Shown piece by piece: positions 16,300-36,727 of a stretch of 37,005 nucleotides of DNA. Under the pieces are notes generated by a model that did no database searches, was not told where the DNA came from, and saw only the letters and a program-made list of their open reading frames with translations. The stretch comes from Thermoplasmatota archaeon. Its GTDB lineage: Archaea > Thermoplasmatota > E2 > DHVEG-1. Made by a program: the position numbers and the translations under genes. The stretch spans positions 1 through 37,005 of the forward strand of contig JBAZLE010000002.1 in the NCBI GenBank assembly GCA_041650455.1, given 5' to 3'. Position 1 is the stretch's first letter. The number at the start of each line of letters is the position of its first letter.

Positions 16300-16941
16300 T
16301 TACCAGTAGACCGTAAATGATTCAACAGTATACCCCGGGGCTGCTGCGTAGGGCATCCCCCATGTGGGGATGACACAATCCCTCCAGTAGTTTTTTCCTA
16401 TTTGTAAATTCACTTTTTCATCGGTTTGCGGCTCAAAGAAATTTAATCCTCTATCTGTTGTTTCAAAGGCAATTAATGCATGGGTCTGGTTGCTGTCACT
16501 GAAAGTGACCTTCACATAGGCGCATCGTATCCCTTCTTTTTCAGCGTTGTTGTTTACTTCTTGCGCGTAATATGCAGAGTTAAACGTGGTTTCGTTAAAG
16601 GGTGTTAAATCGGTAGTGTCATTTGTGAGGAAGTCCCGCGCCTCCCAATAGAGCGGATCATGGACGGTATATGTTGTTGCTGATTGTCGTAATGCGAACT
16701 CATCGAGGGTGTTATTGAGCTCCTCTAGGCGTTGTAGGATCTGATCCCGTAGCTGTGTCCATTCCGTGTTTAAGGTGTCCAGGAGGTGCTGTTGTTCCTC
16801 TAACTCTGTTTGTAATGGTGTTGTTTGCTCAGTCAAAATCGAATTCGATTGTAATGTGCTGTAGATAAGATATCCAGTGATGGGTACTACTGCTAGAAGA
16901 ACAATGAAACCCACGATCACAATTTTTTTTTCGTTTCTCAT
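16300..16941 (-). CDS. TM + coiled-coil + conserved extracytoplasmic C-terminal domain protein (paralog of 16950-17843)
   Basis: 213 aa. The TM segment is IVIVGFIVLLAVVPITGYLIY and is followed by a coiled coil. The C-terminal domain (YTVHDPLYWEARDFLTNDT..GIRCAYVKV..FFEPQTDEKV..IG..Y..DCV) aligns with the upstream gene. The gap to that gene is 8 nt. Confidence 0.6.
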   Translation of the reverse strand: MRNEKKIVIVGFIVLLAVVPITGYLIYSTLQSNSILTEQTTPLQTELEEQQHLLDTLNTEWTQLRDQILQRLEELNNTLDEFALRQSATTYTVHDPLYWEARDFLTNDTTDLTPFNETTFNSAYYAQEVNNNAEKEGIRCAYVKVTFSDSNQTHALIAFETTDRGLNFFEPQTDEKVNLQIGKNYWRDCVIPTWGMPYAAAPGYTVESFTVYW

Positions 16942-16949
16942 TCCTCACC

Positions 16950-17843
16950 TTACCAAATCTCGACGATGCTGGTGATGGTATCATCAAACAGGGAGGAGTA
17001 AGGGGTTCCCTGCACACAGTCACTGTATTGATGCCCGATGACAGGGAACACTTGATAGTCGGTCGTTGGTTCAAAATACACCATTCCTTCATCAACGGTA
17101 TTAAATCCTATCAGTTCATATTCACCATTGGATGAGGAGATAATTTGAACGACGACATACGCACATTGCATGCCTTGTTCTTTCGCGTGACGTAATTCTA
17201 ATGTTATATTGACATTGGTATCATTGGCGATGAATTGAACCACGTCACGAAATATTGGGTCATGTAATTGATACATGTCCCCTGGTGTTTCAAGATTCAC
17301 CGAGGAGAGAAGTTCGAGGATCTCCGCATTGATTTGTTCTAAATGTGGACGACTGGTGTTAATGGACGAAGAGACGTTCATGATCTGTGTTTTTGTCATG
17401 GCTATTTCTTGTTCCAATGCGGTTTTCTCAGTAAGAAGCCCAGCATGAGTCTGTTGCACTACAAGGGTAGCACTGACGGATGTGATCATCAATAAAACCA
17501 CAACAACAATTAACGATATCGTGATTCGAAACGAATGTTTTTTACCTGGGGTGCTTTGTTCCTTGGTTGATTCAGAGGGTTTTTTTTCTTCTGGTTTCCG
17601 TATTCGTTCCGCTTGGATGGGCGGTGGAGGATGGTGTGTCTGTGGGTTTGGAGGAGTTGTGTTTATGCGTTGTTTCTCGGTTGGTTTCTCGGAAAAAGCA
17701 GGGCATTGATGATATTCTGGGAAGATATGATCGATACAAAAAATTTCCTTGCAGTGATTGCAGGTATACGCAAGAAAACGCGGTCGTTCTTTTCGGCAAT
17801 AATGACAGTATATCCGTGGTATACTTCCCACTCTCCTATGCAT
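16950..17843 (-). CDS. AN1-type zinc finger / Pro-rich linker / TM / coiled-coil / conserved C-terminal domain protein
   Basis: 297 aa. Residues 13-47, CHYCRKERPRFLAYTCNHCKEIFCIDHIFPEYHQC, fit the AN1 consensus C-x2-C-x11-C-x2-C-x4-C-x2-H-x5-H-x-C exactly (coded at 17703-17807). A PPNPQTHHPPPP linker, the TM segment ISLIVVVVLLMITSVSATLVV and a C-terminal domain paralogous to 16300-16941 follow. Confidence 0.65.
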   Translation of the reverse strand: MHRRVGSIPRIYCHYCRKERPRFLAYTCNHCKEIFCIDHIFPEYHQCPAFSEKPTEKQRINTTPPNPQTHHPPPPIQAERIRKPEEKKPSESTKEQSTPGKKHSFRITISLIVVVVLLMITSVSATLVVQQTHAGLLTEKTALEQEIAMTKTQIMNVSSSINTSRPHLEQINAEILELLSSVNLETPGDMYQLHDPIFRDVVQFIANDTNVNITLELRHAKEQGMQCAYVVVQIISSSNGEYELIGFNTVDEGMVYFEPTTDYQVFPVIGHQYSDCVQGTPYSSLFDDTITSIVEIW

Positions 17844-19968: not shown

Positions 19969-20146
19969 TCGTCTCCGTACGTATATGGTTTACTTGGTGA
20001 TAGGGATGCCGTGCACCGATTGTAAACTTGAGTTGTATCGTGATGTATTTCCGAACTGATATTTAGGCACCATAGGATTATAAATCAGGAACATGAAATA
20101 AGAACATAGGGATTGTTTCCTAACGGTGGTAAACGGAGAGATATCC

Positions 20147-22087
20147 ATGCGAAAAAGAAAATGTACGGGGCAAGGGATGCACGTTCTGGGTCAGATCAGA
20201 CAGGATACGGCTGTCGCTGAGGTCGTCGGAGAAATTCTCATGTTAACTATGATTGCTTCGATCATCGGTTTTTTATATTTCAACGTGTCATCGATTCCAG
20301 AACCCAGTGTTACGAAAAATGTAACGATTCTTGGTACAGTTGAGGAAAACAATCTGGTTTTACAACATCAAAAAGGAGAGTCCTTAAACTTAGATACGGC
20401 AGTTACCCTAAACATGGTCATTCACAACGAGACGTTTTTAGTGAAAAACTATTTAGACGCAAAGGCCTTGCTGGATGGAGAATGGAGTATCGGGGAGAAC
20501 GTCATATATCCGTTTCCGTTCAATCTCAGTAATATTCAAAGTCATTTCACCGCGTCGCTTCATGTAGCAGATAAGGAAAGCAACTCCCTGGTTTTTATTG
20601 GTGGGTTTGATGTCTATCCAGAAACTGATTTAGGAGTCACCATCACTGCTGATAATCTCGCTCCAGCGATTGGAGACCAGGTGAATTTCACGATTTGCGT
20701 GACAAATTCGAAAGGTGCACCAGCAAAAAACATTGAAATCCTTTGTGTTTTATCCAGGAATTTTTCTTATTTCAGTAATATTTCATCAAGAGGATTCTAT
20801 AACTCGGATACAGGGATTTGGAATGTGAGTTATTTGGAGGTGGGGGAATCTGCTTGTCTTACCATTACCGCGATTGTTATGCTTTCCTCAGAGCCGACCC
20901 AGTTGGCGATGGTTCTTGATGGTTCGGGAAGTATTTCTTCGAGTGATTGGAATATTATGAGGGAGGGTCTTGCGCGATCGATTGAGAATTCAAGTGTCTT
21001 TCCTCATGATGGAAATGTGGAACTGACTGTGGTTCAATTCGGTCAGAGACATGCGCAGCGAGAATTAGGACCAGTTACGGTGACAAAGAGTAATTATCTC
21101 TCCATTGGAGCGCAAATAAGGAGTATCAGTCAACTTGGCGGGTACACACCTATTAGCTGTGGGATTCGGCTGGCTGCAGATCTCTTACGGAACAATGGCA
21201 ATTTCGCTCCAAGTAAAAGGCAGATCATCAATTTAGTCACGGATGGTGTTGCGAACTGCTACTGGACGACTGGATATTCAGGAATCTATCAAGGATACGA
21301 TGGTTGGGGTGAAGGTGAAGATCGGTACCATACCGGGGATTCTTCAGCGAAAGCAAGCTCCAATAGACGGGGGGATATTACCTCCGATGATGTCGATACA
21401 ACTGGAGCGACAAGCATCACGGTTGATTTTTGGTATCGATTAGATGATACCGAGTCAGATGACCTCTACCTGTACTATTATGATGGAAGCTCTTATGATT
21501 ATATCACCGCTCTGGGTGGTGGCGCGGAGGACATCTGGCTTCATTATACGCATACGATTACGCATCCGCAATATTTTAAACCAGACTTCAAAATCCGCCT
21601 GAGAAGCCAACCTGAATTTGGTGAAAATGTCTGGATTGATGATGTGAGAATCAGAACGAATACTAACGAATTGTTCAATGATAGTTTTGAGAGCGAGTAT
21701 TGGGCTGAGCATTGGTGGAACCCTGGACTGAAAAGTGCAGAGGATGCTTCGTTATATTTAAATCAAACACTTCAAATGACCAGCAGTCGAGATGAGTTTG
21801 ATGCCCTTGCGGTTGGTATTGGTGGCATGTATGGTGGACCGGATGTGGATTGGTTAAAGAGTAATGTAGTCTGGCCGCAACCAGGTCGCTTTGCACCACC
21901 GTACATAGCAGGTTGGGTAAGAGCGATTACATCGTGGCAGGAGTTTGAAGAGACGATTCATGAAGTATTTAGCGGTTATTTCGGTATTTCCAATCAGAAC
22001 TTAGTAAAGATTATTACAGTCACACCGTCGACTGACCCTCGCCCTGAAAATAACGAGGTAAGTATCGTCTTAGATACGGGCGGGTAA
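20147..22087 (+). CDS. archaeal type IV pilin-like N-terminal domain protein with DUF11-like repeat and von Willebrand factor A domain
   Basis: The ATG is at 20147. The N terminus ..RQDTAVAEVVGEILMLTMIASIIGFLYF matches the archaeal pilin/DUF1628 pattern (D.AVSEVIG.ILM..). The segment ITADNLAPAIGDQVNFTICVTNSKGAPAKNIEI is a DUF11-like repeat. vWA MIDAS context is present (MVLDGSGSISSSDW ... LVTDGVAN). Confidence 0.6.
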   Translation: MRKRKCTGQGMHVLGQIRQDTAVAEVVGEILMLTMIASIIGFLYFNVSSIPEPSVTKNVTILGTVEENNLVLQHQKGESLNLDTAVTLNMVIHNETFLVKNYLDAKALLDGEWSIGENVIYPFPFNLSNIQSHFTASLHVADKESNSLVFIGGFDVYPETDLGVTITADNLAPAIGDQVNFTICVTNSKGAPAKNIEILCVLSRNFSYFSNISSRGFYNSDTGIWNVSYLEVGESACLTITAIVMLSSEPTQLAMVLDGSGSISSSDWNIMREGLARSIENSSVFPHDGNVELTVVQFGQRHAQRELGPVTVTKSNYLSIGAQIRSISQLGGYTPISCGIRLAADLLRNNGNFAPSKRQIINLVTDGVANCYWTTGYSGIYQGYDGWGEGEDRYHTGDSSAKASSNRRGDITSDDVDTTGATSITVDFWYRLDDTESDDLYLYYYDGSSYDYITALGGGAEDIWLHYTHTITHPQYFKPDFKIRLRSQPEFGENVWIDDVRIRTNTNELFNDSFESEYWAEHWWNPGLKSAEDASLYLNQTLQMTSSRDEFDALAVGIGGMYGGPDVDWLKSNVVWPQPGRFAPPYIAGWVRAITSWQEFEETIHEVFSGYFGISNQNLVKIITVTPSTDPRPENNEVSIVLDTGG

Positions 22088-24410: not shown

Positions 24411-25400
24411 CTATCCTGCAGCTATTATCCAAAAAATAATGAGTAAAAAGCCGCTTACCTCAGTTTCTGTCTCTTCTGCATTTAATGCCCAGGTCATTAC
24501 TTTAATAGTAACTGGACCAAAACCACCAAAACCAAAAAGAGGACCGACCATCAGCATGAGACTTTCATTCGCAGATAACTCAGAAGTATTTGTGGAAAAA
24601 GAACTATTTATGTGATGAAGGAATCCACCGGTTATCTGAGCGGATACCTCAACATCATAAGCACTCACACTACCTACGTTTTTTATCCAGAATCTTGGTC
24701 GCAGCAGGCTTGGTTGAAATTCAATGACGAGGTTGGTGGCCTCTATTCCATACGTTCGAAAGACCATGTCCCATGTGGTGTTGTCTTCCTCTTTCGGGTT
24801 TGGATGTTGATGGTGATTCAATTCCAGGTCTACTGAATCATTGGTCCATGTGTCTCCATCATCAGTTGAAATCCATGCACAGCCGTTTGGATACGCCTCA
24901 GAATCATTATTTGCAGCCCACCCATAAAAATTATCCGTACTGTTTTCTGTGTAACATACCATGTAATAGGTTTGTCCAACGGTCACCCAGAGATTAGATA
25001 TATCAAATTCTACCCAGGAGAAATTATCTGTCGGAATATCGTCTGCTGAAACACTCGTGTTTACTAAATCGGGGTGAGTCAATTCATCTCGGATTCCAAG
25101 GGTAAATGGATATGACGCGCTAGCATTTTTTATAATGCTTACTTCGATTCTTGTAAGAATCGCTTTCTGTGGGATAAATGACTGTGCAATTTGAAAGTTT
25201 AAATCAACGATATCTGGAATGGTTAATCGTCCGACTGGAAGAATGATGTCTTCAACTGCGACTTCTTGAGATTGATCAATCTCATCTGTACCTTTTTCAA
25301 TTATCTCTTTGTTAGTAGCCAAAGTTGACCCTGGCAGTATGCATACGAGGGCAACAATGACCACTACCATAGCCTCCCATTGATGCTTTATTTTTTTCAT
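24411..25400 (-). CDS. secreted protein with C-terminal CARDB-like domain and hydrophobic C-terminal anchor
   Basis: 329 aa. The signal peptide is ..VVVIVALVCILPGSTLA. The C-terminal domain FWIKNVGSVSAYDVEVSAQITGGFL..INSS..GPLFGFGGFGPVTIKV.. resembles the domain in 9778-11778. The final segment is GFLLIIFWIIAAG. Confidence 0.5.
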   Translation of the reverse strand: MKKIKHQWEAMVVVIVALVCILPGSTLATNKEIIEKGTDEIDQSQEVAVEDIILPVGRLTIPDIVDLNFQIAQSFIPQKAILTRIEVSIIKNASASYPFTLGIRDELTHPDLVNTSVSADDIPTDNFSWVEFDISNLWVTVGQTYYMVCYTENSTDNFYGWAANNDSEAYPNGCAWISTDDGDTWTNDSVDLELNHHQHPNPKEEDNTTWDMVFRTYGIEATNLVIEFQPSLLRPRFWIKNVGSVSAYDVEVSAQITGGFLHHINSSFSTNTSELSANESLMLMVGPLFGFGGFGPVTIKVMTWALNAEETETEVSGFLLIIFWIIAAG

Positions 25401-25921: not shown

Positions 25922-26839
25922 ATGTCTATAAAAAAACCTGTAATTTGTGCCATAGGGTTTCTGCTACTATCGACCACGCTGGTTGGAGCATATATCTCTG
26001 TAAACGGAATCAGTATCCCTGACGATAACGTGACCTTAAACGCAGTGGATGGAACCGACAGCTATTTTAACATTACCCTATCAAACGTGCCTGGTGGATA
26101 TGATGTCGAAAACGGTTTGTATCCCGGCTGGTGTGCAGACCGAGCGGTTACCATGATTCGATCCGTCGACCACATTGTGACCTTATACGACAGCTATGAC
26201 CCCAGCCTCCCAACTCAGTTCCAGGGCCAATGGAATAAAATTAACTGGATCCTGAACAACAAAGGTGCTTATTCCATGCAGGTCATACAGGATGCCTGCT
26301 GGTATCTTCTTGGTGATTATACTTGGGCGCAGATATCGACCAGCGCAAAAGAATTAGTGAACCTTGCAAATGGTACTTTCATCCCTGAAGCTGGTGAAAT
26401 ACTTGCGATTGTCGCTGTGCCAACAGCAGCTGGTTGCCAATGCACCTTCATCGAAATCGAAATCCCATGCACCGGAGATGAGGGGTTAACCCCAGGGTAC
26501 TGGAAAAACCATTTATCCAGCTGGCATACGTATGATGACCAAACCGAAATTGGTGACGTCTTTACTCTCCCAAGTAGCCTGAGTGAACTGGATGACGACA
26601 CGTTCCTGGCCGCCCTGAACTACAAGGGAGGCAATAAAGTCATCGGTGCAGCTCGAATCCTGCTGAGAAGCGCGGTTGCAGCTCTTCTTAATGCAGCTCA
26701 CCCGGATATTGATTACCCCTTATCCATCTCAGCTATCATCAGCGATGTCAATGACGCCCTCGCCAGCCTTGATCGAGCAACCATCTTGGACCTTAAAGAC
26801 GTCCTTGACGGCAATAACAACCTCGGCGCAGAGCTCTAA
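25922..26839 (+). CDS. secreted/anchored protein of unknown function with GWCADR and IQDACW motifs
   Basis: 305 aa with an RBS-like AAGAGG upstream. The N-terminal hydrophobic segment is ICAIGFLLLSTTLVGAYI. The motifs YPGWCADR ... WNKINWILNNKG..IQDACWYLLGDY are present. The second half has TPGYWKNH. Confidence 0.5.
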   Translation: MSIKKPVICAIGFLLLSTTLVGAYISVNGISIPDDNVTLNAVDGTDSYFNITLSNVPGGYDVENGLYPGWCADRAVTMIRSVDHIVTLYDSYDPSLPTQFQGQWNKINWILNNKGAYSMQVIQDACWYLLGDYTWAQISTSAKELVNLANGTFIPEAGEILAIVAVPTAAGCQCTFIEIEIPCTGDEGLTPGYWKNHLSSWHTYDDQTEIGDVFTLPSSLSELDDDTFLAALNYKGGNKVIGAARILLRSAVAALLNAAHPDIDYPLSISAIISDVNDALASLDRATILDLKDVLDGNNNLGAEL

Positions 26840-26854
26840 GCCTTCGCCACATCC

Positions 26855-26873
26855 TTTTTTTCTTTTTTTTTTT
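26855..26873 (+). terminator. oligo-T tract (T7 C T11), probable terminator
   Basis: The tract begins 16 nt downstream of the stop at 26839. Confidence 0.4.
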
Positions 26874-26989
26874 AAACCAAGTCCACATCTCTATAGTCTT
26901 GTGTTTTAGTCGTTTCAAAACCTTTAAATCAGCCTTGCTGATGATATTCTTAGTTCCGGTTTTACGGGAGTCAAAAGAGGTTGTTTACA

Positions 26990-29002
26990 ATGAAATCGAG
27001 AGTATATACCGGTGTGGTATCATCATTTATCTTACTTGTCTTGCTGATAGGTGTTTTTTCTGTCGTTGTCCCAGAGACAGTGCGTGCATTTCAGGATGGT
27101 GACTACATCTATGAAACCACTGGCGATCCCTTGGTAGCGACCATAACGGGGTACGCTGGTGAGGGAGGAGCGATTATCATCCCTTCAACAGTAGGTGGAT
27201 ATCCAACAGTACACATTGGTAATGGTGCGTTTGAATCCTGCTCCTCATTAACGTCCGTGACGATCCCCGATACTGTTACCACCATCGGGGACTTTGCCTT
27301 TATCTCCTGCGGTTCGTTAGCCTCTGTCATCATCGGAAGCAGCCTGACTACTATCGGAAGCTATGCCTTTGACGCCTGTAATCACCTTACCTCCATAGCC
27401 ATTCCTGACAGCGTCACCACTATTGGAGCGTATGCATTTTATAAGTGCACCAACCTGACCTCGGTGACTCTAGGAGACGGCGTTGTCACCATCGGAAATT
27501 ACGCGTTTTCTTACTGCACTCAGCTTCCCTCTGTGATGATTCCCAGTAGCGTCACGAACATCGGAACCTACGTGTTCCAATATTGCACCTCACTCACTAC
27601 GATCACTGTTGACGAATCAAACGTACAGTACGCCAGCATCAATGGAGTGCTATATACCAAGGATATCACAACCCTGATCCAGTGCCCCGCTCACAAGACT
27701 GAACCGGTGATCATCCCGGATAGCGTCGACACCATCGGGAAAGCAGCCTTTTTCGCCTGTACCTCCCTGAGCTCCATCAGCATTCCCAGCAGTGTTGACT
27801 CCATCGGAGATTACGCGTTTTCCCACTGTCCTCTGACCACGGTCGACATACCAAACAGTGTCATCACGATCGGGGTCTATACCTTTGCCTTCTGCCCGTT
27901 GATCTCGGTGACCATCGGAAGCAAGGTCAATGCCATCGGCAACTATGCGTTTACCTCCTGTAATTCCCTTACCTCCATAACCTTCTTCGGCCTTGTGGCA
28001 CCGTCCTACGTTGGTACGTACTGGATTCTCAATACACCAAATACCCTCCGAGGTCATGCGTCTGCCGCCTCGACCTTTCCCGAACCAGGGGGTGTGTGGA
28101 ATGGATTGACGATGGGGACCTACCTATCAGAGAACGGAGGATCAAATGGAGGGTCTTCCTCAGATGAAAATCAAAAACCCGTTGCAGACACGTCCGCTGG
28201 CGAACCCTACCAAGGATATGTCAATTCAGAGATTTTTTTTAATGGATCCGCAAGCTATGACCCTGATGGGAACATCACCACCTGGCTTTGGGATTTTGGT
28301 GATAACACCAACGGGACCGGGAAAACCGTGCGGCATTCCTATTCCAAAGCAGATACCTATATAGTAACGCTGACTGTAATTGATAACCAAGGAGCTATAA
28401 CAACCCGTCAGACTACCGCGGTGATCCTGACAGTCAATACCCCGCCGCTCCAGCCGATGATCACGGGTCCATCAGTCGGGCAGAAAAATGTCTTATATAA
28501 TTATTCGGTTACGGCCTACGATGCAGATAACGATACCATTCAATATACTGTTGTATGGGGTGATCAAACCTCGTATGCCAATACAAGTGTATTTTTACCA
28601 AGCGGTACTCCATTTCTGAGCGTTCATTCCTGGACTGTTGCTGGACGGTACAATGTCACAGTAGCAGCTACTGATAATATCTCAGCGTCTTCTTCACATC
28701 TCACCGTGTATATCGATGCGGTACAAACTGGTGAAATCGGGTATCTTATCGATACAGACAGCAATGGGATATACGACATGTTCTGCTCTGATGAATCACA
28801 ACAACTCACAGCAGTGCAACAAACGAATGGCGCGTATACCATTGATACAGACGGGGATGGTTCTTGGGATTACACCTTTGATACGTCGCAGGGGTTGACA
28901 CCCTATGAGGAATCACCACAAACACCAGGGTTTGAACTCATTGTTGTGCTCAGCGCCATTGTTTTCCTCGTGTTGGTACGACGGCTTGATTTCCGTCTTT
29001 AA
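26990..29002 (+). CDS. surface protein: BspA-type leucine-rich repeats + PKD domains + PGF-CTERM anchor
   Basis: The ATG at 26990 is preceded by AAAGAGG. The signal peptide is ..LLIGVFSVVVPETVRA. There are about 11 repeats of the form IP.SVT.IG.YAF..C..LTSV. A PKD unit is present (FNGSASYDPDGNITTWLWDFGDNTNGTG..HSY...TYIVTLTVID). The protein ends PGFELIVVLSAIVFLVLVRRLDFRL. Confidence 0.75.
   Translation: MKSRVYTGVVSSFILLVLLIGVFSVVVPETVRAFQDGDYIYETTGDPLVATITGYAGEGGAIIIPSTVGGYPTVHIGNGAFESCSSLTSVTIPDTVTTIGDFAFISCGSLASVIIGSSLTTIGSYAFDACNHLTSIAIPDSVTTIGAYAFYKCTNLTSVTLGDGVVTIGNYAFSYCTQLPSVMIPSSVTNIGTYVFQYCTSLTTITVDESNVQYASINGVLYTKDITTLIQCPAHKTEPVIIPDSVDTIGKAAFFACTSLSSISIPSSVDSIGDYAFSHCPLTTVDIPNSVITIGVYTFAFCPLISVTIGSKVNAIGNYAFTSCNSLTSITFFGLVAPSYVGTYWILNTPNTLRGHASAASTFPEPGGVWNGLTMGTYLSENGGSNGGSSSDENQKPVADTSAGEPYQGYVNSEIFFNGSASYDPDGNITTWLWDFGDNTNGTGKTVRHSYSKADTYIVTLTVIDNQGAITTRQTTAVILTVNTPPLQPMITGPSVGQKNVLYNYSVTAYDADNDTIQYTVVWGDQTSYANTSVFLPSGTPFLSVHSWTVAGRYNVTVAATDNISASSSHLTVYIDAVQTGEIGYLIDTDSNGIYDMFCSDESQQLTAVQQTNGAYTIDTDGDGSWDYTFDTSQGLTPYEESPQTPGFELIVVLSAIVFLVLVRRLDFRL
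28925..28999 (+). other. PGF-CTERM archaeal sorting signal (PGF + TM helix + basic tail)
   Basis: The peptide PGFELIVVLSAIVFLVLVRRLDFRL sits at the extreme C terminus. This matches the tripartite architecture of archaeosortase A substrates. Confidence 0.7.
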
Positions 29003-29071
29003 AAACAGATACTCTGAACATAACGGTTTTTGTATGCAAGTGTAATGAAAAGAAAAAGAGAGTGGCTCTCT

Positions 29072-32000
29072 TTAGTAACCACACAGGAGTCGGAGAAGTG
29101 GGAACGCGGTGGGGAATCGCTCAAATAACGCCATTAAGAGCTGTCGTATCGGATGCTGATAGGAATACGGCATGGTGACTGGTAAGGGGTCTGACCAGTC
29201 GCTCTCCGCGTCAAACGTATCCTTGGCTTTCACCTTGATGCTGTATGATCCTTTCTTGGCCCAGGTGTGTGTCGTACTAATGGTGGCACCAGAGGTATAC
29301 GGTCCTAGCCACGTGCTTTGAGTCCCATCGCCCCAGTCCCAGAGATAATACACCTGGTCTCCATCCAGGTCGGTGGTGCTGGTTGTGTAGGTGTATATGA
29401 TGTTGATGTTTCCGTTGGTTTCACCCGTTGGCGTCTCGGGTTTGTCTGGTGGGTTATTTTCTTGCTGTTGTGTGGTAAACGTGTACCATGAGCTGGTATA
29501 CTCGCCGCTACCAGAGGGATCTGTGGCGTTCACCCACACGGTATAGGTTGTAGAATATGTCATATCGGAGAGGGCGAGTGTTTTCGTTCCGTTGGCTGCA
29601 CCCGTTCCGCTATTGGTCTGTCCATTGTTACACTGGATGGTCCAAGAGAACTCATCACCATCCGGGTCATAAATCGGAATGTTCCAGAGAAAGCTTAACG
29701 ATTGATTCAGGGAACCGTTGGCTGGGGAGGGCATTCCAAACAAAGGTGGATAATTCGCCCCTGCGAGCCCCGTCGTAAACGTGTACCACCTGCGGGTATA
29801 CAAACCACTGCCTGCGGGATCGGTTGCATTGACCCAGATGGTATAGGTTGTTGAGTACGCAAGACCAGAGAGTGGAAGGGGTTTGGTTCCATTGAGTGAA
29901 CCTGCCCCGCTGCTCGATTCGCCATTGCTACATGAAATCGCCCAGGAAAATGGATCACCCTCGGGGTCATTGATGGGGATGCTCCAGGTGAAACTCAATG
30001 GTTGGTTGGTTGAGCCATTGGCAGGGGTTGGTGTGCCAAATTCTGGGGGGAGGTTTGTTGCTGTGGTGAACTGCCAGGTTGGTCCTGTGGTGGATGTGCC
30101 ATGGTTATCCCAGGCGATGATCCTCCAGTAATAGGCGGTTTGGTAGTTCATCGTCCCAGGGTCGTACAGGCTGGTTGATTGGTTGCTGGTGATTTTCGGT
30201 GGAGGCGATGTCGTGCCGAAATAGACGTCATAGGTGACCGTATCACCTGCGTCAGGGTCGCCTCCTTGCCAGCTGAGGTCTTCAGTGATGCTGACCGCGG
30301 TTGCCAGATCCGGTGGCGATGGGGTGTGTGGCGTATACGGAGCCTGATTGGTTTCAAGGACTTGCGCAGTACTTTCAAAGGGAAGATAGTTCTGTTTTGT
30401 GATGGTGACGTACAGTGTGCCCGTAGAATTTGGTGTGATGCTCAATGTTATTGTTCCAGCGGTGTTCGTCAACCCGCGTTCATAGATTTCCGTGCCTTTC
30501 CAAAGGCAGACGTACGCTTGATTCACAGGGCTGCCGTTGGAGGTAACAGTGACGATGAACGAAGATGTGTTCAGCGGTATTTGACTCGGGTGTGAGGCGG
30601 TAAGGTTCATCGGGTTTTCCTTCCAGATAGGTAGCTCTGGGTCACCCAGTAACGTCAACTCAGTGAAAATATATTTATAATGACCGTAAAAGTCGTATTG
30701 ATACGCATCATTCTTATGATCCGAGAAACATGCTCCAAGCTTGTAGTTGTTTTCCGGGAACAAGGATTTGAAGAAATAGATGTCGTATTTCATAGAAAGC
30801 GTGTTCACATAGCCAGGGTTATACCACCCGTAGCGGGAGTTACCCACAAAGGCGATGCCGCCACCATTGTTGTCCCTGACGAAATGCTCTGCGATGCTGT
30901 TGGAAAAATCATAGGCTGCTGGCCAGCATCCCATGGAGTAAAAAATGCCTTGTTTGTTCCCGTTGGTTAACGCATCCATATCCGCGTTCTCCAACCCGAG
31001 ATCATGATTAACATAGCCGGTACCCATGTAATCATAATTCGAATGATCCGCATGGTTCATGAGGTTCTGGCCTGCGTTGATCGCAGCGATGACGTTGGTC
31101 TTATGGTTCCCGGTGTGGCTGTCGTAGACGGCCGTCAACGTCCAACTGGTGGGGATATACGAATTCGTAATCGTTATCTTGCATTGTTCTGCAGGGGTGC
31201 TGCTGTCAAGGTTAAACCCGTAGAAGCCTGCGCAGGTCGCGTAGTTAGTCAACGGTGGGTTTTTTTCATAGGTGAGTGTTTTGTTGATGAAATTGCCGAT
31301 TTGGCCGACACCTGATCCTGCAGCGGTGACTGATGCGCGACCGACATGCACCTCGCAGACCCAGTCGTTGTCGTAATCCGCGTAGTAGGTATCGTTTGGG
31401 ACGGGGTCTGGGTCGACATTGGAAAACGTTCGAGAGGAATACGGCACGGCATTGGTGTCCCCACCGAGTAGGAAATACATCGTGCCCCAGGTGGTCTGCG
31501 CGTCCTGGACAAACGCCTTGATTTTTTCCACGTTTGTCCCGCTGTATCCTCCGTTGTTATAAATCCATGAGGTGGTGACAATCGTGGCAGGGGTTCCTTT
31601 CTTTGTCTTCCAGTCTCGCAGTGGCTCAAACGCACTCACGAAGCTTTCTTGGGTGATGATGACGTACTCGTAATTCCCTGGTGGTACGCCTTTGCTTAGG
31701 GGATGGGGTGCGCTGCGGAGTGTGACCTGCCGTGGGTTGATGACCATGCGTTGCACCATCTGCTTATACATCTCTTTTCCTTGGTCGGAGATGCTTTTAG
31801 AAAGATAATCGCCGCAGGTATATCCTTCTGTAAGTTCGACGGTGAAGCTGATGGATGTGATCAGGGTCACTTGGTGCTGTGAAGCAAGATAGATGAGGGG
31901 ATAGAACGCGAGATCGACCATCGCTTGACCTGCGAGATCACAGTGACCGGTGATCTGCACGGGTTCTGAGGGATACGGGTGCAAGGAGAAAGAGACGTCC

Positions 32001-32452
32001 GTAGCAAGGGGGAGAAGAGAGACATCATTGCTGATGGAATTTGTTTTCTCTGGTGGCTGTGCCGGGAGCAGGGTGTAGAGACCAGTGAGTGGTTGGGTGG
32101 TGATGTATCGGAGGTGGATTTGTGTTGCTTTCCTGTCTGGGGGGAGTGCGATCCGGAGGGTTTTCACCGGGAGTATCGGCTTTCCTGGCTCCGCAGACAC
32201 ATCATAGTCGTTTATTTCGATGATGTCATAGCCCTGGAACGTATCAAAATGAAGGTCTTCTTCATTGATTTGTAGGCGACAATACAGTGCGTTTTCGGTT
32301 GGTATTACTTCAATGGTGTCAGGGGTATTGTATGGGATGTGTGATGTCTGTGTTTGAGTAATACTGACCTGTACTGCTGAGGTGCTGCTTGTTATAAAAA
32401 ATATCATAAGAACGATTATCGTTATTGTTTTTTTCATTAGTCGTTTTTCCAT
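29072..32452 (-). CDS. secreted peptidase C25 (gingipain-like) with Ig/FN3-like domains, PKD-like unit and LFERFP tail
   Basis: 1126 aa. The signal peptide is ..ITSSTSA. C25 hallmarks are present: YEYVIITQESFVSAFEPLRDWKTKKG, YFLLGGDTNAVPY, a His context NHADHSNYDYMGTG and a Cys context IFYSMGCWPAAYD. Downstream lie Ig-like domains and two tandem 93-aa units. Next comes YYLWDWGDGTQSTWLGPYTSGA..IKVKAKD..WSDPLPVTMP. The protein ends ..LFERFPTAFPLLRLLCGY-stop. Confidence 0.75.
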   Translation of the reverse strand: MEKRLMKKTITIIVLMIFFITSSTSAVQVSITQTQTSHIPYNTPDTIEVIPTENALYCRLQINEEDLHFDTFQGYDIIEINDYDVSAEPGKPILPVKTLRIALPPDRKATQIHLRYITTQPLTGLYTLLPAQPPEKTNSISNDVSLLPLATDVSFSLHPYPSEPVQITGHCDLAGQAMVDLAFYPLIYLASQHQVTLITSISFTVELTEGYTCGDYLSKSISDQGKEMYKQMVQRMVINPRQVTLRSAPHPLSKGVPPGNYEYVIITQESFVSAFEPLRDWKTKKGTPATIVTTSWIYNNGGYSGTNVEKIKAFVQDAQTTWGTMYFLLGGDTNAVPYSSRTFSNVDPDPVPNDTYYADYDNDWVCEVHVGRASVTAAGSGVGQIGNFINKTLTYEKNPPLTNYATCAGFYGFNLDSSTPAEQCKITITNSYIPTSWTLTAVYDSHTGNHKTNVIAAINAGQNLMNHADHSNYDYMGTGYVNHDLGLENADMDALTNGNKQGIFYSMGCWPAAYDFSNSIAEHFVRDNNGGGIAFVGNSRYGWYNPGYVNTLSMKYDIYFFKSLFPENNYKLGACFSDHKNDAYQYDFYGHYKYIFTELTLLGDPELPIWKENPMNLTASHPSQIPLNTSSFIVTVTSNGSPVNQAYVCLWKGTEIYERGLTNTAGTITLSITPNSTGTLYVTITKQNYLPFESTAQVLETNQAPYTPHTPSPPDLATAVSITEDLSWQGGDPDAGDTVTYDVYFGTTSPPPKITSNQSTSLYDPGTMNYQTAYYWRIIAWDNHGTSTTGPTWQFTTATNLPPEFGTPTPANGSTNQPLSFTWSIPINDPEGDPFSWAISCSNGESSSGAGSLNGTKPLPLSGLAYSTTYTIWVNATDPAGSGLYTRRWYTFTTGLAGANYPPLFGMPSPANGSLNQSLSFLWNIPIYDPDGDEFSWTIQCNNGQTNSGTGAANGTKTLALSDMTYSTTYTVWVNATDPSGSGEYTSSWYTFTTQQQENNPPDKPETPTGETNGNINIIYTYTTSTTDLDGDQVYYLWDWGDGTQSTWLGPYTSGATISTTHTWAKKGSYSIKVKAKDTFDAESDWSDPLPVTMPYSYQHPIRQLLMALFERFPTAFPLLRLLCGY
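29075..29149 (-). other. C-terminal tail IRQLLMALFERFPTAFPLLRLLCGY (candidate sorting/anchoring peptide, copy 3)
   Basis: These are the last 25 codons of the 29072-32452 ORF. Confidence 0.6.
29471..30049 (-). repeat. tandem duplication of a 93-aa domain inside the C25 gene (aa 802-894 and 902-994)
   Basis: Unit 1 is PPEFGTPTPANGSTNQPLSFTWSIPINDPEGDPFSWAISC..YTIWVNATDPAGSGLYTRRWYTFTT. Unit 2 is PPLFGMPSPANGSLNQSLSFLWNIPIYDPDGDEFSWTIQC..YTVWVNATDPSGSGEYTSSWYTFTT. Confidence 0.8.
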
Positions 32453-32557
32453 GCTATGGTACCCTCCTTGTCAAGGTAAATTAATACGTAATATGATGTT
32501 ATTTCATTTAAATGTTTGGAAAAGATAAAAATAATATGATAGAAACTTTGACTCGAT

Positions 32558-33088
32558 TTATACGAGTTTCTTCAGCGTCGTTCGTTCAGGATTTAACACA
32601 TACTGTTTTCGTATACATTTCAAGGTTTGTAAAATCTGTGTTTCCTGAATAAGACCAGGATAGCGTTTACTTAATAATTGAGAAAATTTCTTTGCCTGCA
32701 TAAGGTTCTCAGCAGTAAACATGATGACCCAGTCGTAGCACCCATGCGTATAACAACTGGTTTCAATGGTGATATTCATTTCTTTGATAAGGTCATCCCA
32801 CTTTGGTGAAACGATGGTATCGACGATGTTTTGGTTGACATTTTTTGCGTTCCTCTTTATCAGTACCATATAATGCTTTAGTCCAAGTTTCTCTTCATCA
32901 AACACTGCGGTATATCCCCAAATCAACCCTTTTGTTTCCAATTGTTTGATGATTCTCCATGCTTTTTGGGTCGAGAACCCACACTGTTTGGCGATCCTTT
33001 CGAGGTTTTCTTTTGAGTTTTTCACCAGTTCTGAAAGCAATTTTTTTTCATCTTGCTCCATCTGTTCCTTGCTGCTTTTCGCCATCAT
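32558..33088 (-). CDS. Lrp/AsnC family transcriptional regulator
   Basis: The HTH is KLLSELVKNSKENLERIAKQCGFSTQKAWRIIKQLETKGLIWGYTAV and an RAM-like domain follows (..LKHYMVLIKR..). The ATG at 33088 is preceded by GAGGTG. The ORF track extends to 33256. Confidence 0.75.
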   Translation of the reverse strand: MMAKSSKEQMEQDEKKLLSELVKNSKENLERIAKQCGFSTQKAWRIIKQLETKGLIWGYTAVFDEEKLGLKHYMVLIKRNAKNVNQNIVDTIVSPKWDDLIKEMNITIETSCYTHGCYDWVIMFTAENLMQAKKFSQLLSKRYPGLIQETQILQTLKCIRKQYVLNPERTTLKKLV

Positions 33089-33295
33089 TGACACCTCATG
33101 GTTCAGAACCGCAGCAGGTGTTACCGGTTCTGTCTCATAATCGGGTGATAGGATATGAAGAAAAAGGCGTGTAACAAGTCGGGTGATTATAAATCCATTA
33201 TATCTTGTAGGAACATTTTTATATTTGGTATACATAAAATTATTATTGTGATTCAAAAATTATTTAAACATAAATCAAATCAGGATATTGGGTCA

Positions 33296-33940
33296 ATGGA
33301 GCTTAAGGAAAGGACGATAAATAGTTTACTTGTATTACATTTAATTGATGAAACTAATAAGAAAGGAACATTGGAAGATAACTTTAAAGTTCAAAAAATG
33401 GTTTTTTCTATACAAAAACTTTTAACGCAAAGGAGCCGAAAAGCATTTAGTTATAATTTCTTCAGATGGCATAAAGGACCATTCAGTGCTGATTTAAACA
33501 ATGATTTGAATTTATTACAAAAAAATAAAATGGTTGACTGGGGAAAAGACAAAATTGTCCTTACTCGACAAGGAACAGAACTATTGAACGCCTGTCATGA
33601 AATCATTGACAAAAATATTTTTTTCCATGATGCGTTCAATACGATTATTAATGAATATGCAAGATTACCTCCAGGTGAAATTAAAAATAGAATATATCAA
33701 TTAAGAATTTTTGTTCCTGTTTTACGAAAGGTAATGTCAATTAGAGACATTCCTCTTAAACAATTAATTCTTTTTAAGCCTCGTGATGAAAGGATGAAAC
33801 ATGTATTTGATATAGACGAATCATGGGAGGCGACATTGGAGATTCTTTTTGATAAAGATGCCCTTGTCTCTCTTTCTATGGCGTTTAAAGATGCAAAAGA
33901 GGGAAGGCATGGGGAACCCTTTACAGTTCATACCTCTTGA
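33296..33940 (+). CDS. Panacea (DUF4065/SocA-like) domain putative antitoxin
   Basis: The ATG is at 33296. The pattern KVQKMVFSIQKLL...FSYNFFRWHKGPFSADLNNDL resembles the Panacea core (KLQKLLY...W..GP.s..l). The C-terminal WEATLEILFDKDALVSLSMAFKDAKEGR resembles the tails of type II antitoxins. It overlaps the next ORF by 32 nt. Confidence 0.5.
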   Translation: MELKERTINSLLVLHLIDETNKKGTLEDNFKVQKMVFSIQKLLTQRSRKAFSYNFFRWHKGPFSADLNNDLNLLQKNKMVDWGKDKIVLTRQGTELLNACHEIIDKNIFFHDAFNTIINEYARLPPGEIKNRIYQLRIFVPVLRKVMSIRDIPLKQLILFKPRDERMKHVFDIDESWEATLEILFDKDALVSLSMAFKDAKEGRHGEPFTVHTS

Positions 33941-34274
33941 AAGATATGAAAAAAATCTTTCTTCATTTCATCCAAAAGACCAAGAAAAAATTACTAAAGC
34001 GATAAAAGAGCGTTTACCTTTTAATCCAATGCGTTATCCAATGTTACAAGGTGGGATACCAATTTCTGGAGTTGATTTAATAGGATTACGGCACCTAAAA
34101 ACTGGCGTTATGAACGCAAAAGGTGGTGCATATGTCTTGTACCGTTATTGTAAAGAATGCTTAGCAAACAAATATTATGAAAAAAGTAAAGTCCGATGTC
34201 AATTTTGTGATGGAAAGACGGAAGAACAAATAGTTCTTTTTGATGTCAACTTGAGAAGTGCTGACTACAAATGA
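33909..34274 (+). CDS. RelE/ParE-superfamily-like toxin with CxxC..CxxC zinc-ribbon insertion
   Basis: The ATG at 33909 is preceded by GAGGGA. The pattern ..KDQEKITKAIKERLPFNP....L.G....GLRHLKTGV....GAYVLYRY[CKECLANKYYEKSKVRCQFCDGK]TEEQIVLFDVNLRSADY follows the RelE-like layout. The bracketed segment is an insertion. Confidence 0.5.
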   Translation: MGNPLQFIPLERYEKNLSSFHPKDQEKITKAIKERLPFNPMRYPMLQGGIPISGVDLIGLRHLKTGVMNAKGGAYVLYRYCKECLANKYYEKSKVRCQFCDGKTEEQIVLFDVNLRSADYK

Positions 34275-35413
34275 TTTGGTGTTTCGATTACCGATTTTTT
34301 TAATATTTCAAGCCATCGGAAACCTTCAATTTTTGGTAACCCTGCCATTTCACCAGGAGTAACACCAAGGGTCTGATGATTACGAATGAGATTGTAATGG
34401 ACACGAAAACCTTCCATGATATTCTTACAACCATCATCCTTATCAAAACCACGCATAACCTTAATCCGTTCCTTTTCGCTCCCATGAAAACGCTCAATAC
34501 GATTATTGCTTACTCTTGCTTTGATACTTGGAACACGAATATGAGGTGAGAAATACCCAGTACGAGAACCACCACTATGCCCGAACTCTTTGATAATCGC
34601 TTTCGGGTAAGACATCATACCGTCCGTAAGAATCTCCCGGGGTTTATCCTTTGTAACCTGTTTTGCTTTCTTCAACGGTATCCGTGTGTTTTGTATACTA
34701 CGGTTTTCACTCACATGGATAGCAAGGAGATAACGACTTCGACTGTCAAGAATATTCCAAAGCCACCTTTGTTTACCATCTACATTAACCTTGGTTTCAT
34801 CGAAATGCCATCGCTCACTGGTATGTATCTCCTGTTTGTTCATCCATTCAGAAGCAAGTTGGCTATACTGCTCTATCCATCGGTAAACAGTCATATGACT
34901 GATATCTAGGTTATGAACCTGTTGGAAATGCTCTGCTACCTTTCGGATTGAAAGACCACGGTAATAGAGATCAAGAGCAAGTGCTATTTTCTCTGGTTCT
35001 GCTCTTTTCTTCTGGAATCCCTGGTTGTCAGTAAATCGGTGTCCACAGTCTTTACAGAGATAGCGGTTGATGATTCCGCTTTTGTTATTTCGTTTTCCAT
35101 TCATTACGACATTGTAGCTTTTGCAGTAATCGCATGTTGGTTTGTTCTGCATGATGTCTTTATTTGACTGTTGGAGATCAATCCTGAATTTCACAGCAAT
35201 GACATGTATACAGGTTTGTGTCTGTTGGTAGTGTTCGCATGTACATGTGTATCCTTTTCCATGTTTCTGTATCTGATAGATTAATCCTGATTTACTTTGT
35301 GATTTGACAGTAAATGAATGATTATTGTTTGGTGCTATTTGGTCGCCTCTTGCGACTATTGCAAGGGCTGGTGTTTGTTGGTCCTTCCATGTGTTCATTT
35401 TCTCACTTTCCAT
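34265..35413 (-). CDS. IS6 (IS240)-like DDE transposase with N-terminal SWIM-type and zinc-ribbon motifs
   Basis: 382 aa. The DDE context is WHFDETKVNVDGKQRWLWNILD, ILTDGMMSYPKAI and SNNRIERFHGSEKERIKVMRGF. The HTH is LSIRKVAEHFQQVHNLDISHMTVYRWI. The N terminus has YTCTCEHYQQTQTCIH (CxC..CxH) and CDYCKS..CKDCGH. Confidence 0.75.
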   Translation of the reverse strand: MESEKMNTWKDQQTPALAIVARGDQIAPNNNHSFTVKSQSKSGLIYQIQKHGKGYTCTCEHYQQTQTCIHVIAVKFRIDLQQSNKDIMQNKPTCDYCKSYNVVMNGKRNNKSGIINRYLCKDCGHRFTDNQGFQKKRAEPEKIALALDLYYRGLSIRKVAEHFQQVHNLDISHMTVYRWIEQYSQLASEWMNKQEIHTSERWHFDETKVNVDGKQRWLWNILDSRSRYLLAIHVSENRSIQNTRIPLKKAKQVTKDKPREILTDGMMSYPKAIIKEFGHSGGSRTGYFSPHIRVPSIKARVSNNRIERFHGSEKERIKVMRGFDKDDGCKNIMEGFRVHYNLIRNHQTLGVTPGEMAGLPKIEGFRWLEILKKSVIETPNHL

Positions 35414-35424
35414 ATGTAACTATA

Positions 35425-35520
35425 ATGTAGCTACATGTATATAATACTTTCTACTATGTAGCTATTAAATAATGGAAAACATGCATAAAGTATATAAATA
35501 ATAACTATTATGTAGCTACA
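35425..35520. promoter_or_regulatory. three copies of ATGTAGCTA(C/T) (core palindrome GTAGCTAC) in the divergent promoter region
   Basis: The copies are at 35425-35436 (a perfect 12-bp palindrome, ATGTAGCTACAT), 35456-35465 and 35510-35520. A degenerate copy (ATGTAACTAT) lies at 35413-35422. Confidence 0.6.
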
Positions 35521-35751
35521 ATGAAAAAACTAACAAAAAAACCGATTGTGCCTGAAAACCCTATAGCAAGAGAACAACCAGAAAAACCAACCACGCCAGA
35601 AAAAACAATGTGGGTCGAAGTCGAAGGTTTTGAGGCTATAGAAAAAATTGTGCGTTCCTCTGGTAACTCAGGACGGGTCTACGTACCTCCAAATTGGGTA
35701 GCATGTAGAGTAAAGATTATACGATTGGACCCATTACCACAAGTTGTTTAG
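35521..35751 (+). CDS. DUF2080-like transposase-associated small protein (AbrB/SpoVT-like C-terminal half)
   Basis: 76 aa. The segment ..VEVEGFEAIEKIVRSSGNSGRVYVPPNWVACRVKIIRLD resembles the small transposon-encoded proteins found next to archaeal IS transposases. Confidence 0.5.
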   Translation: MKKLTKKPIVPENPIAREQPEKPTTPEKTMWVEVEGFEAIEKIVRSSGNSGRVYVPPNWVACRVKIIRLDPLPQVV

Positions 35752-35816
35752 GGGGTCATCGCGAAAACATGATATTTACTTGCTATCGAAATAACAGATT
35801 AACTAACGGTTTTCCA

Positions 35817-36727
35817 ATGGAAGAAAGGGGGAGGGAGTAATTTACCAGGATAAAACGCTTGAAATAGATAGTATAATTCATGGAGATTGTAAAACACATC
35901 TTAAATCGTTCCCAGATGAATCAATTGATTTCATTATTACATCTCCCCCATATGCGTATAATCGTAAAGGAACTTATGGGGGAGTACCAATTGAAAAATA
36001 TGTTGAATGGTTTTTACCTATATCATACGAATTGAAACGTGTATTGAAAAACGATGGTTCTTTCATTTTAAACATCAAAGAACGGGTAGTAAACGGAGAA
36101 CGACAAACCTATGTCTTAGAACTTATTTTAAAAATGAAGGAGCAAGGTTGGCTCTGGACAGAAGAATATATTTGGCATAAGAAAAACTGTTATCCTGGAA
36201 AATGGCATAACCGATTTCGGGATGCATGGGAACGTTGTTTGCACTTTACAAAACAAAAAAAATTCAGTATGTATCAAGAATCAGTAATGGTACCTGTTGG
36301 AGATTGGGCACAAGTTCGTCTTAATCATCTTAGTGAAACGGATAAGATAAGAGATACATCAAAAGTAGGGAGTGGTTTTGGAAAAAATATTTCACGATGG
36401 ATAGACCGAGAATATGTATATCCTTCCAATGTCCTTTATTTAGCAACAGAATGTGGGAATAAGAATCACAGCGCGGTATTTCCAAAAGAAATTCCAGAAT
36501 GGTTTATTAAATTATTCACAAGAGAAGAAGATGTTGTTCTTGACCCTTTTATTGGCTCTGGGACTACTGCAATAGCATGTATAGAATTGAAAAGACATTT
36601 TATAGGAATTGAGTTGAACGATAAATATTATCAGGTAGCAAAAAATAGAATTAGTGAATTTGAGTTTGAACATGAAACGAAAAGACCATTAAAGATAAAG
36701 AGATTACCAATATTGAATGAACAATGA
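35817..36727 (+). CDS. beta-class DNA methyltransferase (SPPY motif IV before FxGxG motif I; N4-cytosine or N6-adenine), 5' end problematic
   Basis: The in-frame translation from 35807 reads ..VIYQDKTLEIDSIIHGDCKTHLKSFPDESIDFIITSPPYAYNRK.. and continues into the ORF-track protein (VLDPFIGSGTTAIACIELKRHFIGIELN). There is no ATG, GTG or TTG in that frame before TTG 36032. The ATG at 35817 is in a different frame, separated by a G5 run. Confidence 0.8.

Follow-up and report, generated by a model that had tools for sequence, protein, structure and literature searches.

A transmembrane-free C-terminal tail shared by unrelated exported proteins of Thermoplasmatota archaea, a candidate surface tether

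Three exported proteins with a common end

The stretch of DNA analysed here (the window) comprises 37,005 nucleotides of contig JBAZLE010000002.1 from a Thermoplasmatota archaeon. It carries three genes for exported proteins that have unrelated N-terminal domains and finish in the same C-terminal element, hereafter the tail. This is what the original prediction had proposed, and the open reading frames (ORFs), the Pfam matches and the alignment all agree with it. The three ORFs, at 29072–32452 (minus strand), 5695–7428 (minus strand) and 7721–9646 (plus strand), were confirmed, with translations ending as had been quoted. Read directly from these translations, all three N-termini are of the Sec type, with a basic stretch followed by a hydrophobic stretch. 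The catalytic parts are unrelated, with Pfam E-values of 1.8e-49 for Peptidase_C25, 2.7e-23 for Arylsulfotrans and 3e-8 for Peptidase_C13, and a PKD unit follows each of them.

The gene at 29072–32452 encodes, as judged from its ORF and translation, an exported C25 (gingipain-family) peptidase of 1126 residues; ENA contig k141_1770234 (ERZ27247363) has this gene call as well. From the amino-terminus onwards, the protein is made up of a signal peptide, a weak C25 propeptide-like region, the catalytic domain, the C25 Ig-like domain, FN3-like repeats, the PKD unit and the tail. The catalytic domain (residues 263–608, positions 30629–31666, minus strand) matches PF01364 with 169.4 bits against a cutoff of 23; its assignment to C25 rests on this full-length match above the gathering score (profile positions 1–373 of 374). 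Pfam also recognises Peptidase_C25_C (2e-10), fn3 and PKD. The PKD unit (residues 1002–1095, positions 29168–29449, minus strand; Pfam PKD 2.3e-8) leads into the linker and tail (residues 1096–1126, positions 29075–29167, minus strand; YSYQHPIRQLLMALFERFPTAFPLLRLLCGY), in which the 18-residue core motif occupies 29075–29128, directly before the stop codon at 29072–29074.

The gene at 5695–7428 (minus strand) encodes an exported ASST-like beta-propeller protein of 577 residues, with the Arylsulfotrans match, a PKD unit at about 5791–6072 (PKD 1.1e-5) and a linker and tail (CSYNGIIQPFLQRLFERFPAAFPFLRQLVGH) at 5698–5790 (minus strand), the core motif being at 5698–5751. The exported C13 (legumain-family)-like protein encoded at 7721–9646 (plus strand) has 641 residues and two PKD units (PKD_4 3.4e-11, two stretches); its linker and tail (VEYQFTLNAFFERLFERFPRLFPILRTLMEY) are located at 9551–9643 (plus strand), with the core motif at 9590–9643. 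When the 125-residue modules formed by PKD unit, linker and tail are aligned, 40 columns are invariant in all three, including L-F-E-R-F-P..F-P.L-R.L. The tails end LFERFPxxFPxLRxLxG[YH]-stop and are more conserved than the folded PKD domain before them, while the linkers differ from each other. Exactly three copies of FE[RK]FP are present in the six frames of the window, each located 12 residues ahead of the stop that ends one of the three ORFs.

The PKD unit is recognised as such in all three proteins by PF00801/PF18911 (PKD/PKD_4). In an AlphaFold2 model of the 125-residue module, calculated from an alignment of 35 sequences, the PKD sandwich preceding the tail is predicted with confidence (predicted local distance difference test score, pLDDT, of about 96). 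A Foldseek search with this model gives the PKD domains of PDB entries 4XED and 2Y72 as top matches; 4XED is matched with an E-value of 6.3e-12 and an r.m.s.d. of 1.1 Å over 95 columns, and hmmsearch of the PKD unit against its sequence gives E=5e-34. The PKD domain in 4XED belongs to an M14-like peptidase of Thermoplasmatales archaeon SCGC AB-540-F20, a single-cell genome of MBG-D (Marine Benthic Group D). It thus belongs to the same PKD subtype and the same lineage, but its chain stops at ...LEVTMPK, exactly at the boundary between PKD unit and tail. As the chain ends where the tail would start, the tail is absent from this solved structure, and a search of the PDB revealed no other that contains it. 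Its parent peptidase may bear the tail. The only, weak match to the tail in the PDB (E=0.16) is the RNA chaperone ProQ (PDB entry 6S10, LQVIDWLIENFPNAF), the first helix and turn of which resemble the first tail helix (L..L.ERFPNAF); most likely this reflects chance or a convergent helix-capping motif.

The original prediction had the tail always following a PKD-like unit. This has to be relaxed: of 134 representatives, 122 (91%) have the unit immediately before the tail, and the other 12 (9%) have a propeller or a different beta-sandwich in its place. The same PKD subtype also occurs internally, as in the first unit of the C13-like protein, and such copies are tailless. The PKD unit is therefore an ordinary, separable domain, dispensable in 9% of the carriers.

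Conservation, distribution and variant forms of the tail

The family consensus for the last 18 residues is L F [EQ] R F P [NH] A F P [IL] L R [HQ] L [LM] G Y, at 2.5–4.3 bits per position, values inflated at a few positions by the loose regular expression with which the conservation set was picked. As a peptide the consensus tail reads PILQFLELLFQRFPNAFPILRHLLGY, and the ends of the matches to a PKD-plus-tail profile yield the consensus ...WSDPLPITMPYSYNKPILQFLELLFQRFPNAFPILRHLLGY-stop. The invariant F-E-R-F-P of the original prediction holds for the three proteins of the window and loosens to [EQ]-R-F-P across the family; all three window tails depart from the family N or H at position -12. 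Between PKD unit and tail, a semi-conserved linker, MP-YSYN-KP, is found, and other linker classes exist, for example MPKNK. The tail ends in L-[LM]-G-Y, and its sole conserved basic residue near the end is the arginine at -6, so that there is no terminal basic cluster.

In the AlphaFold2 model, the tail forms a helix (module residues 100–111), the FPxxFP segment and a second helix (residues 117–123), with pLDDT values of 71–77. The hydrophobic moment of the first helix is 0.56, against 0.33 ± 0.16 for shuffled sequences. On the Wimley-White interfacial scale, the summed free energy comes to -2.7 kcal/mol before a helix forms, which is mildly favourable. The best 19-residue Kyte-Doolittle mean, taken over 189 tails, is 0.58 ± 0.31 with a maximum of 1.24; the window tails have 0.44–1.27, compared to 2.27 for the tail of a neighbouring gene described below. 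These values rule out a hidden transmembrane segment, in agreement with the original prediction. By its predicted helices, the tail falls among the amphipathic C-terminal helices that exported proteins carry without a transmembrane segment, a functional class and not a homology family.

Neither Pfam-A (2025) nor NCBIfam 20.0 contains a model that matches the tail at permissive thresholds, whether whole proteins (Pfam E<=0.01, NCBIfam E<=1) or the window tails, the consensus and the variant tails alone (E<=10) were scanned; the neighbour's tail served as positive control. That the tail differs from the named sorting signals was thus borne out. A full-text literature search with motif strings and relevant topics found no description of it. 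The Thermoprofundales genome paper describes highly transcribed extracellular C25, C13 and C1A peptidases and reports no shared tail (PMC6461988), and no mention of it is made in a later paper on how archaea degrade protein in sediments. The tail is real, widespread and unnamed, and is undescribed with respect to Pfam, NCBIfam and the searchable literature.

The PKD-plus-tail profile matched 383 proteins at E<=1e-3, many of them over the whole query; those with a named source come from metagenome-assembled genomes (MAGs) of Thermoplasmata, Thermoplasmatota or Euryarchaeota. With a 30-residue profile of the tail alone, an exhaustive search of 1.84 billion cluster representatives returned 730 at E<=1e-3 and 29 at E<=1e-10, the best at 7.6e-18. 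The 730 clusters rule out chance or local paralogy as the origin of the motif, and the tail is not confined to three paralogous ends. A genome scan, for which an alignment of a 7-sequence subset was used, returned 80 loci from 43 assemblies, all of them archaeal MAGs and including the recognised MBG-D genomes SM1-50 and M11B2D. Fifty-seven loci bear a Thermoplasmat- label; for the remainder the database record, from which all labels were taken, says no more than Euryarchaeota, Methanobacteriota or uncultured archaeon. The distribution is that of the top-ranked matches. At least eight tails are present in the fetched loci of a single MAG.

The position of the tail is nearly fixed, as had been claimed from the window. 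Among 141 new representatives within the top 150 matches to the tail profile, the profile ends exactly at the last residue in 125 and one residue short of it in 10, and 1–6 extra residues follow in the remaining 6. A stop-to-stop scan of all six frames of the 80 loci and the window (714 kb) gave 65 tail matches: 60 end exactly at the stop codon, four within one residue of it, one is cut by a premature stop and none is internal. The sole internal copy was met in P0121, a metagenomic protein of 693 residues, in which a propeller end, ...FQRFPNAFPILRQLVKY, is followed at once by the later part of an FN3/PKD/tail block, entered midway, whose own tail closes the protein. Two tail-bearing genes have probably been joined here, by gene fusion or as an assembly chimera.

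The cargo is diverse and of extracellular type, the 88 full-length representatives including NosD/beta-helix, laminin-G, FG-GAP, BspA-LRR (LRR_5), PQQ and other propeller, ASST and peptidase C1, M28 and C39-like proteins. A simple heuristic finds a signal-peptide-like N-terminus in 73 of 89 full-length-looking representatives; the others resemble starts called inside domains. At residues that are identical between pairs of window tails, the same codon is used in 5 of 13, 8 of 12 and 1 of 11 cases. Over all pairs this amounts to 0.42, against a baseline of 0.41 in the PKD region, and codons are shared about as often as codon bias predicts. Synonymous sites are thus scrambled, which indicates selection on the peptide. 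A DNA-level repeat, a regulatory element and gene conversion are ruled out by this comparison, since a nucleotide element or recent gene conversion would keep codons alike. The tail is a portable, strictly terminal and strongly selected amphipathic helix-kink-helix on exported proteins, mostly mounted on a PKD stalk.

Where homologous cargo was clustered, members lacking the canonical motif have in nearly all cases kept an extension of 25–35 residues after the same WSDPL..TMP ending. One such variant end, LLAQFLHNLLQFLQNLLK, occurs in direct orthologues of canonical-tail proteins and is heptad-like; further variant ends are FVDFFQSLFPHLFQFFERLLTL, FFERLEQRFPIIYLFLHEVFNRFGV, FLENHPHMFPLLRQLLGL and IWHILEIINEWFEQIIGRNILP, and one C25 homologue has a hydrophobic run in place of the tail. 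The median best hydrophobic moment is 0.59 for variant ends, 0.65 for canonical tails and 0.48 for control C-termini from the same loci (variant versus control, p=1.5e-8), and the variant ends are less charged than these controls. Canonical and variant classes coexist in one genome. The canonical LF[EQ]RFP..FP.LR tail is the largest and best-conserved class of a graded family of amphipathic helix-kink-helix ends, and a family of this kind favours a physicochemical tether over a sortase-like recognition site.

Neighbouring genes and other features of the window

Clustering of the ORFs around the tail genes (581 clustered ORFs in 80 loci) revealed no recurrent processing enzyme or receptor beside them. 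It gave only a winged-helix regulator beside C25 genes and, among close relatives, synteny blocks with an antiporter-like membrane protein and a CBS-domain-like protein. The M50 peptidase of the window was considered as a partner and shows no recurrent linkage. The winged-helix (Lrp/AsnC-like) regulator is located at 32558–33256 (minus strand; Pfam HTH_24 2.5e-6), directly upstream of the C25 gene, and is not part of the tail system. Its cluster has 10 members in 10 loci (the window and loci L009, L016, L028, L032, L033, L041, L068, L070 and L074), several of them adjoining C25 genes, which hints at a conserved, possibly amino-acid-responsive, control of the exported C25 peptidase.

A C-terminal signal of the transmembrane type, PGFELIVVLSAIVFLVLVRRLDFRL (TPGFELIVVLSAIVFLVLVRRLDFRL), is located at 28925–28999 (plus strand), at the end of the BspA-LRR/PKD surface protein encoded at 26981–29002. 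As had been proposed, the genome therefore contains a second type of C-terminal signal, in this case archaeosortase-type. It had been read as PGF-CTERM; the PGF-CTERM model does not match, and the neighbour's tail alone is identified by NCBIfam as Heimdall-CTERM (NF045529, 28 bits versus a cutoff of 24). A similar end, TPGFEFLILVCAIAFVLCLQLKRKKRK, is present in locus L019 of the MBG-D MAG M11B2D. At least two genomes have both the tail and ends of the transmembrane, PGF-like type, always on different ORFs. The Heimdall-CTERM match hinted at an Asgard origin of the window, which is ruled out by TgtA: the TgtA of the window (TIGR00432, 523 bits) is 73–81% identical to that of Thermoplasmatota MAGs including SM1-50 and M9B2D, so that the window belongs to a Thermoprofundales-type archaeon. 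As the signal is found in Thermoplasmatota genomes, the name Heimdall-CTERM may understate its taxonomic range.

Another recurring C-terminal pattern on exported proteins, ..SGL[IF]FGFG...[IV].[IV]..., is followed at a distance of about 15–20 residues by a short hydrophobic run at the very end, as in VVMFFFVFFLSGGG and GFLLIIFWIIAAG. In the window it is located at the C-terminus encoded at 24411–25400 (minus strand) and inside 9778–11778 (plus strand), and elsewhere in loci L065 (221–2866), L020 (8608–10194), L054 (2699–4417), L046 (464–1873) and L048 (856–2274). Possibly these archaea have in it a further C-terminal module without a name. A third surface-display architecture within the 37 kb is encoded at 20126–22087 (plus strand), where a protein of 653 residues starts with the N-terminus of an archaeal type IV pilin and continues with DUF11 and von Willebrand A domains.

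The adjacent genes at 16300–16941 and 16950–17843 (both minus strand) encode membrane-anchored proteins with similar C-terminal domains (LHDPLYWEARDFLTNDT.. and LHDPIFRDVVQFIANDT.., with ..FFEPQTDEKV and ..YFEPTTDYQV). The product of the latter has an N-terminal AN1 zinc finger, and the domain common to both is without a Pfam family. The remainder of the window encodes the housekeeping proteins NadC, aspartate dehydrogenase, TgtA and Nop5, other surface proteins, the M50 peptidase, a transposase and a DNA methylase. The G+C content is 0.48–0.51 over the two large surface-protein genes (26000–32000) and 0.36–0.38 in 32000–36000; the DDE transposase (34265–35413) and the DNA methylase (36032–36727) are both on the low-G+C side.

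Proposed role of the tail

Most likely, the tail tethers exported proteins to the cell surface without a transmembrane segment. We estimate the probability of non-covalent surface retention of some kind at roughly 0.65; for the membrane interface as the target, our proposal is a tentative one, at somewhat less than even odds. In this mechanism, the proteins would be exported by Sec through their N-terminal signal peptides, and the last 25–30 residues, the last to leave the translocon, would form an amphipathic helix, the FPxxFP kink and a second helix. The resulting hairpin would partition into the outer face of the cytoplasmic membrane, with the Phe/Leu/Tyr stripe inserted and the two conserved arginines towards the lipid head groups. 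The PKD unit would serve as a stalk, keeping the catalytic or binding domain clear of the membrane, and peptidases and other exoproteins would be kept at the cell, where the products of hydrolysis could be captured.

In favour of the tether are the terminal position, the exported-type cargo, the many copies per genome, the two predicted helices and the amphipathicity without a transmembrane segment. The membrane is favoured as the target because divergent, physically similar tail classes replace each other and coexist, which lipid would tolerate more easily than a single receptor. The tolerance of C-terminal extensions (one to six residues, in 6 of 141 representatives), the lack of a linked partner gene and the emergence of the C-terminus from the translocon last, next to the membrane, argue in the same direction. 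Several observations weigh against a lipid target. Eighteen consecutive positions are conserved by residue identity, which suggests recognition by a protein, since lipid-binding helices are usually conserved in pattern only; the window tails are even more conserved than a folded domain. The terminal residue follows the genome: all eight tails from one MAG end in Y and all three from another in L. Finally, hydrophobic moment and mean hydrophobicity lie near, and not clearly above, Eisenberg's surface-seeking boundary.

The PBP5- and PBP6-type C-termini of E. coli are amphipathic helices that anchor exported enzymes to the membrane. Like the tail, they are free of transmembrane segments, sit on Sec-exported enzymes and tolerate different sequence classes with a common physicochemical pattern. 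There is no homology, and the tail differs in having two helices, a conserved proline kink, identity over 18 residues and portability on hundreds of unrelated cargo proteins. A literature search found no description of an archaeal amphipathic C-terminal anchor. The AmyA protein of Sulfolobus solfataricus is an archaeal exported hydrolase kept at the membrane by its C-terminus, to the benefit of growth; loss of retention slows growth on polymer (PMC5023256). The rationale proposed for AmyA is the same as here, but its bipartite motif consists of an 18-residue hydrophobic, transmembrane-like stretch and charged residues (PMC5023256); the tail is amphipathic and not of transmembrane grade. By analogy, the tail may work most like the PBP5/6 anchors or a miniature dockerin. 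It lacks the defining features of each homology family compared, having no transmembrane helix, basic end, model match or outer-membrane host.

Retention could also be achieved by docking, in which the tail would bind a protein of the envelope (S-layer or membrane) non-covalently, so that many exoenzymes are mounted on one scaffold by the logic of dockerin and cohesin without homology to them. We regard this as rather unlikely. It would account for a core of 18 residues and a G-Y end that keep their residue identity in many genomes and on unrelated cargo, the nearly fixed register to the C-terminus, the clustering of the terminal residue by genome, the joint departure of the window tails from N/H at -12 and selection at the level of protein and not of DNA. 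However, the loci contain no recurrent partner gene, no cohesin-like or other receptor was found, C-terminal extensions are tolerated, and tail classes that coexist in one genome and swap in orthologues would need several receptors or a very tolerant one. Like a dockerin, the tail is a small C-terminal module on many different secreted enzymes and could mount them on a common scaffold. Tails scanned alone (E<=10) have no Pfam dockerin match, though, and at about 30 residues, compared to about 70, they lack the duplicated calcium-binding loop-helix repeats and the Asp/Asn-rich loops.

In the original prediction, the tail was a sorting or anchoring signal, which stays plausible and unproven, no processing enzyme or partner gene accompanying the tail genes in the 80 loci. 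In its covalent form, which we consider unlikely, an enzyme would recognise and remove the tail and link the protein to a lipid or glycan. The C25 and C13 families include C-terminal-signal transpeptidases (PorU and GPI8), so that enzymes of these kinds would be candidates; both families are abundant here. A strongly conserved, strictly C-terminal motif, present many times per genome on signal-peptide proteins, is what such a signal would look like, and the MP-YSYN-KP linker could hold the cleavage site. Yet this linker is poorly conserved, differing among the three window proteins and replaced in the MPKNK class, and the sequences of the variant tails are quite different. To our knowledge, the described prokaryotic sortase-type signals all hold their substrate in the membrane by a transmembrane helix; the tail has none, so nothing would hold it there for processing. 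Nor does it match a sorting-signal model, and no candidate enzyme is linked to the tail genes.

The archaeosortase and exosortase signals (PGF-, PEF-, VPXXXP- and Loki-/Heimdall-CTERM) resemble the tail in being short, in standing at the very C-terminus of numerous signal-peptide proteins in each genome and in occurring on unrelated cargo, often behind a PKD or Ig-like spacer. They differ from it in their transmembrane helix, their terminal basic cluster and their models; the tail is predicted to form two amphipathic helices and an FPxxFP kink instead. The parallel that had been drawn with type IX secretion holds for its logic only. As in the Por_Secre_tail of the Bacteroidota gingipains, C25 peptidases and other cargo share an end containing a beta-sandwich, but the three window proteins have no TIGR04183 or Pfam match to it, the helical tail is the conserved element and the sandwich is the ordinary, dispensable PKD unit. 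The host is, by its TgtA, a single-membrane archaeon, so there is no outer membrane to cross.

It is very unlikely that the tails serve assembly, bundling as helices into homo- or hetero-oligomers and multi-enzyme complexes, cell-attached or not. Two amphipathic helices with a conserved Phe/Leu stripe, the same tail on many different enzymes of one genome and the heptad-like variant LLAQFLHNLLQFLQNLLK would fit such bundles, but the helices are short (12 and 7–10 residues) and broken by two prolines. Just as improbable is a role without targeting, in which the tail would cap the preceding domain within the same molecule, help it to fold or form a family-specific extension of the PKD subtype: one subtype directly precedes 91% of the tails and pLDDT values of 71–77 are reached in its context, but 12 of 134 carriers have the tail on a beta-propeller or a different beta-sandwich, the PKD domain of 4XED (ending ...TMPK) crystallised well without it, internal PKD copies are tailless and the window tails are the better-conserved part.

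Whatever its target, the shared tail is a handle: a single 30-residue profile marks a set of proteins, and the peptide can be synthesised and tested. It merits a curated model, its carriers being annotated at present only as 'PKD domain-containing protein'. We know of no described archaeal C-terminal surface-attachment signal that does not rely on a transmembrane helix, and if the tether is true, a signal without one would add a new class.

MBG-D (Thermoprofundales) are among the most abundant archaea of marine and estuarine sediments and are thought to live on detrital protein by means of exported C25, C13, C11 and C1 peptidases that are highly transcribed in situ (PMC6461988). Who gains from the hydrolysis depends on whether such enzymes are set free or stay at the cell, and this also affects how enzyme kinetics in sediments are read. 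A bolder, doubtful possibility is that the tail is the recognition element of a new, transmembrane-independent archaeal surface-display system served by a dedicated receptor or processing enzyme. If so, this system would gather dozens of Sec-exported hydrolases per cell, the highly transcribed MBG-D peptidases of families C25, C13 and C1 included, into an ordered array for protein degradation on the cell envelope. It would follow, in archaea, the logic of sortases or cellulosomes and be homologous to neither.

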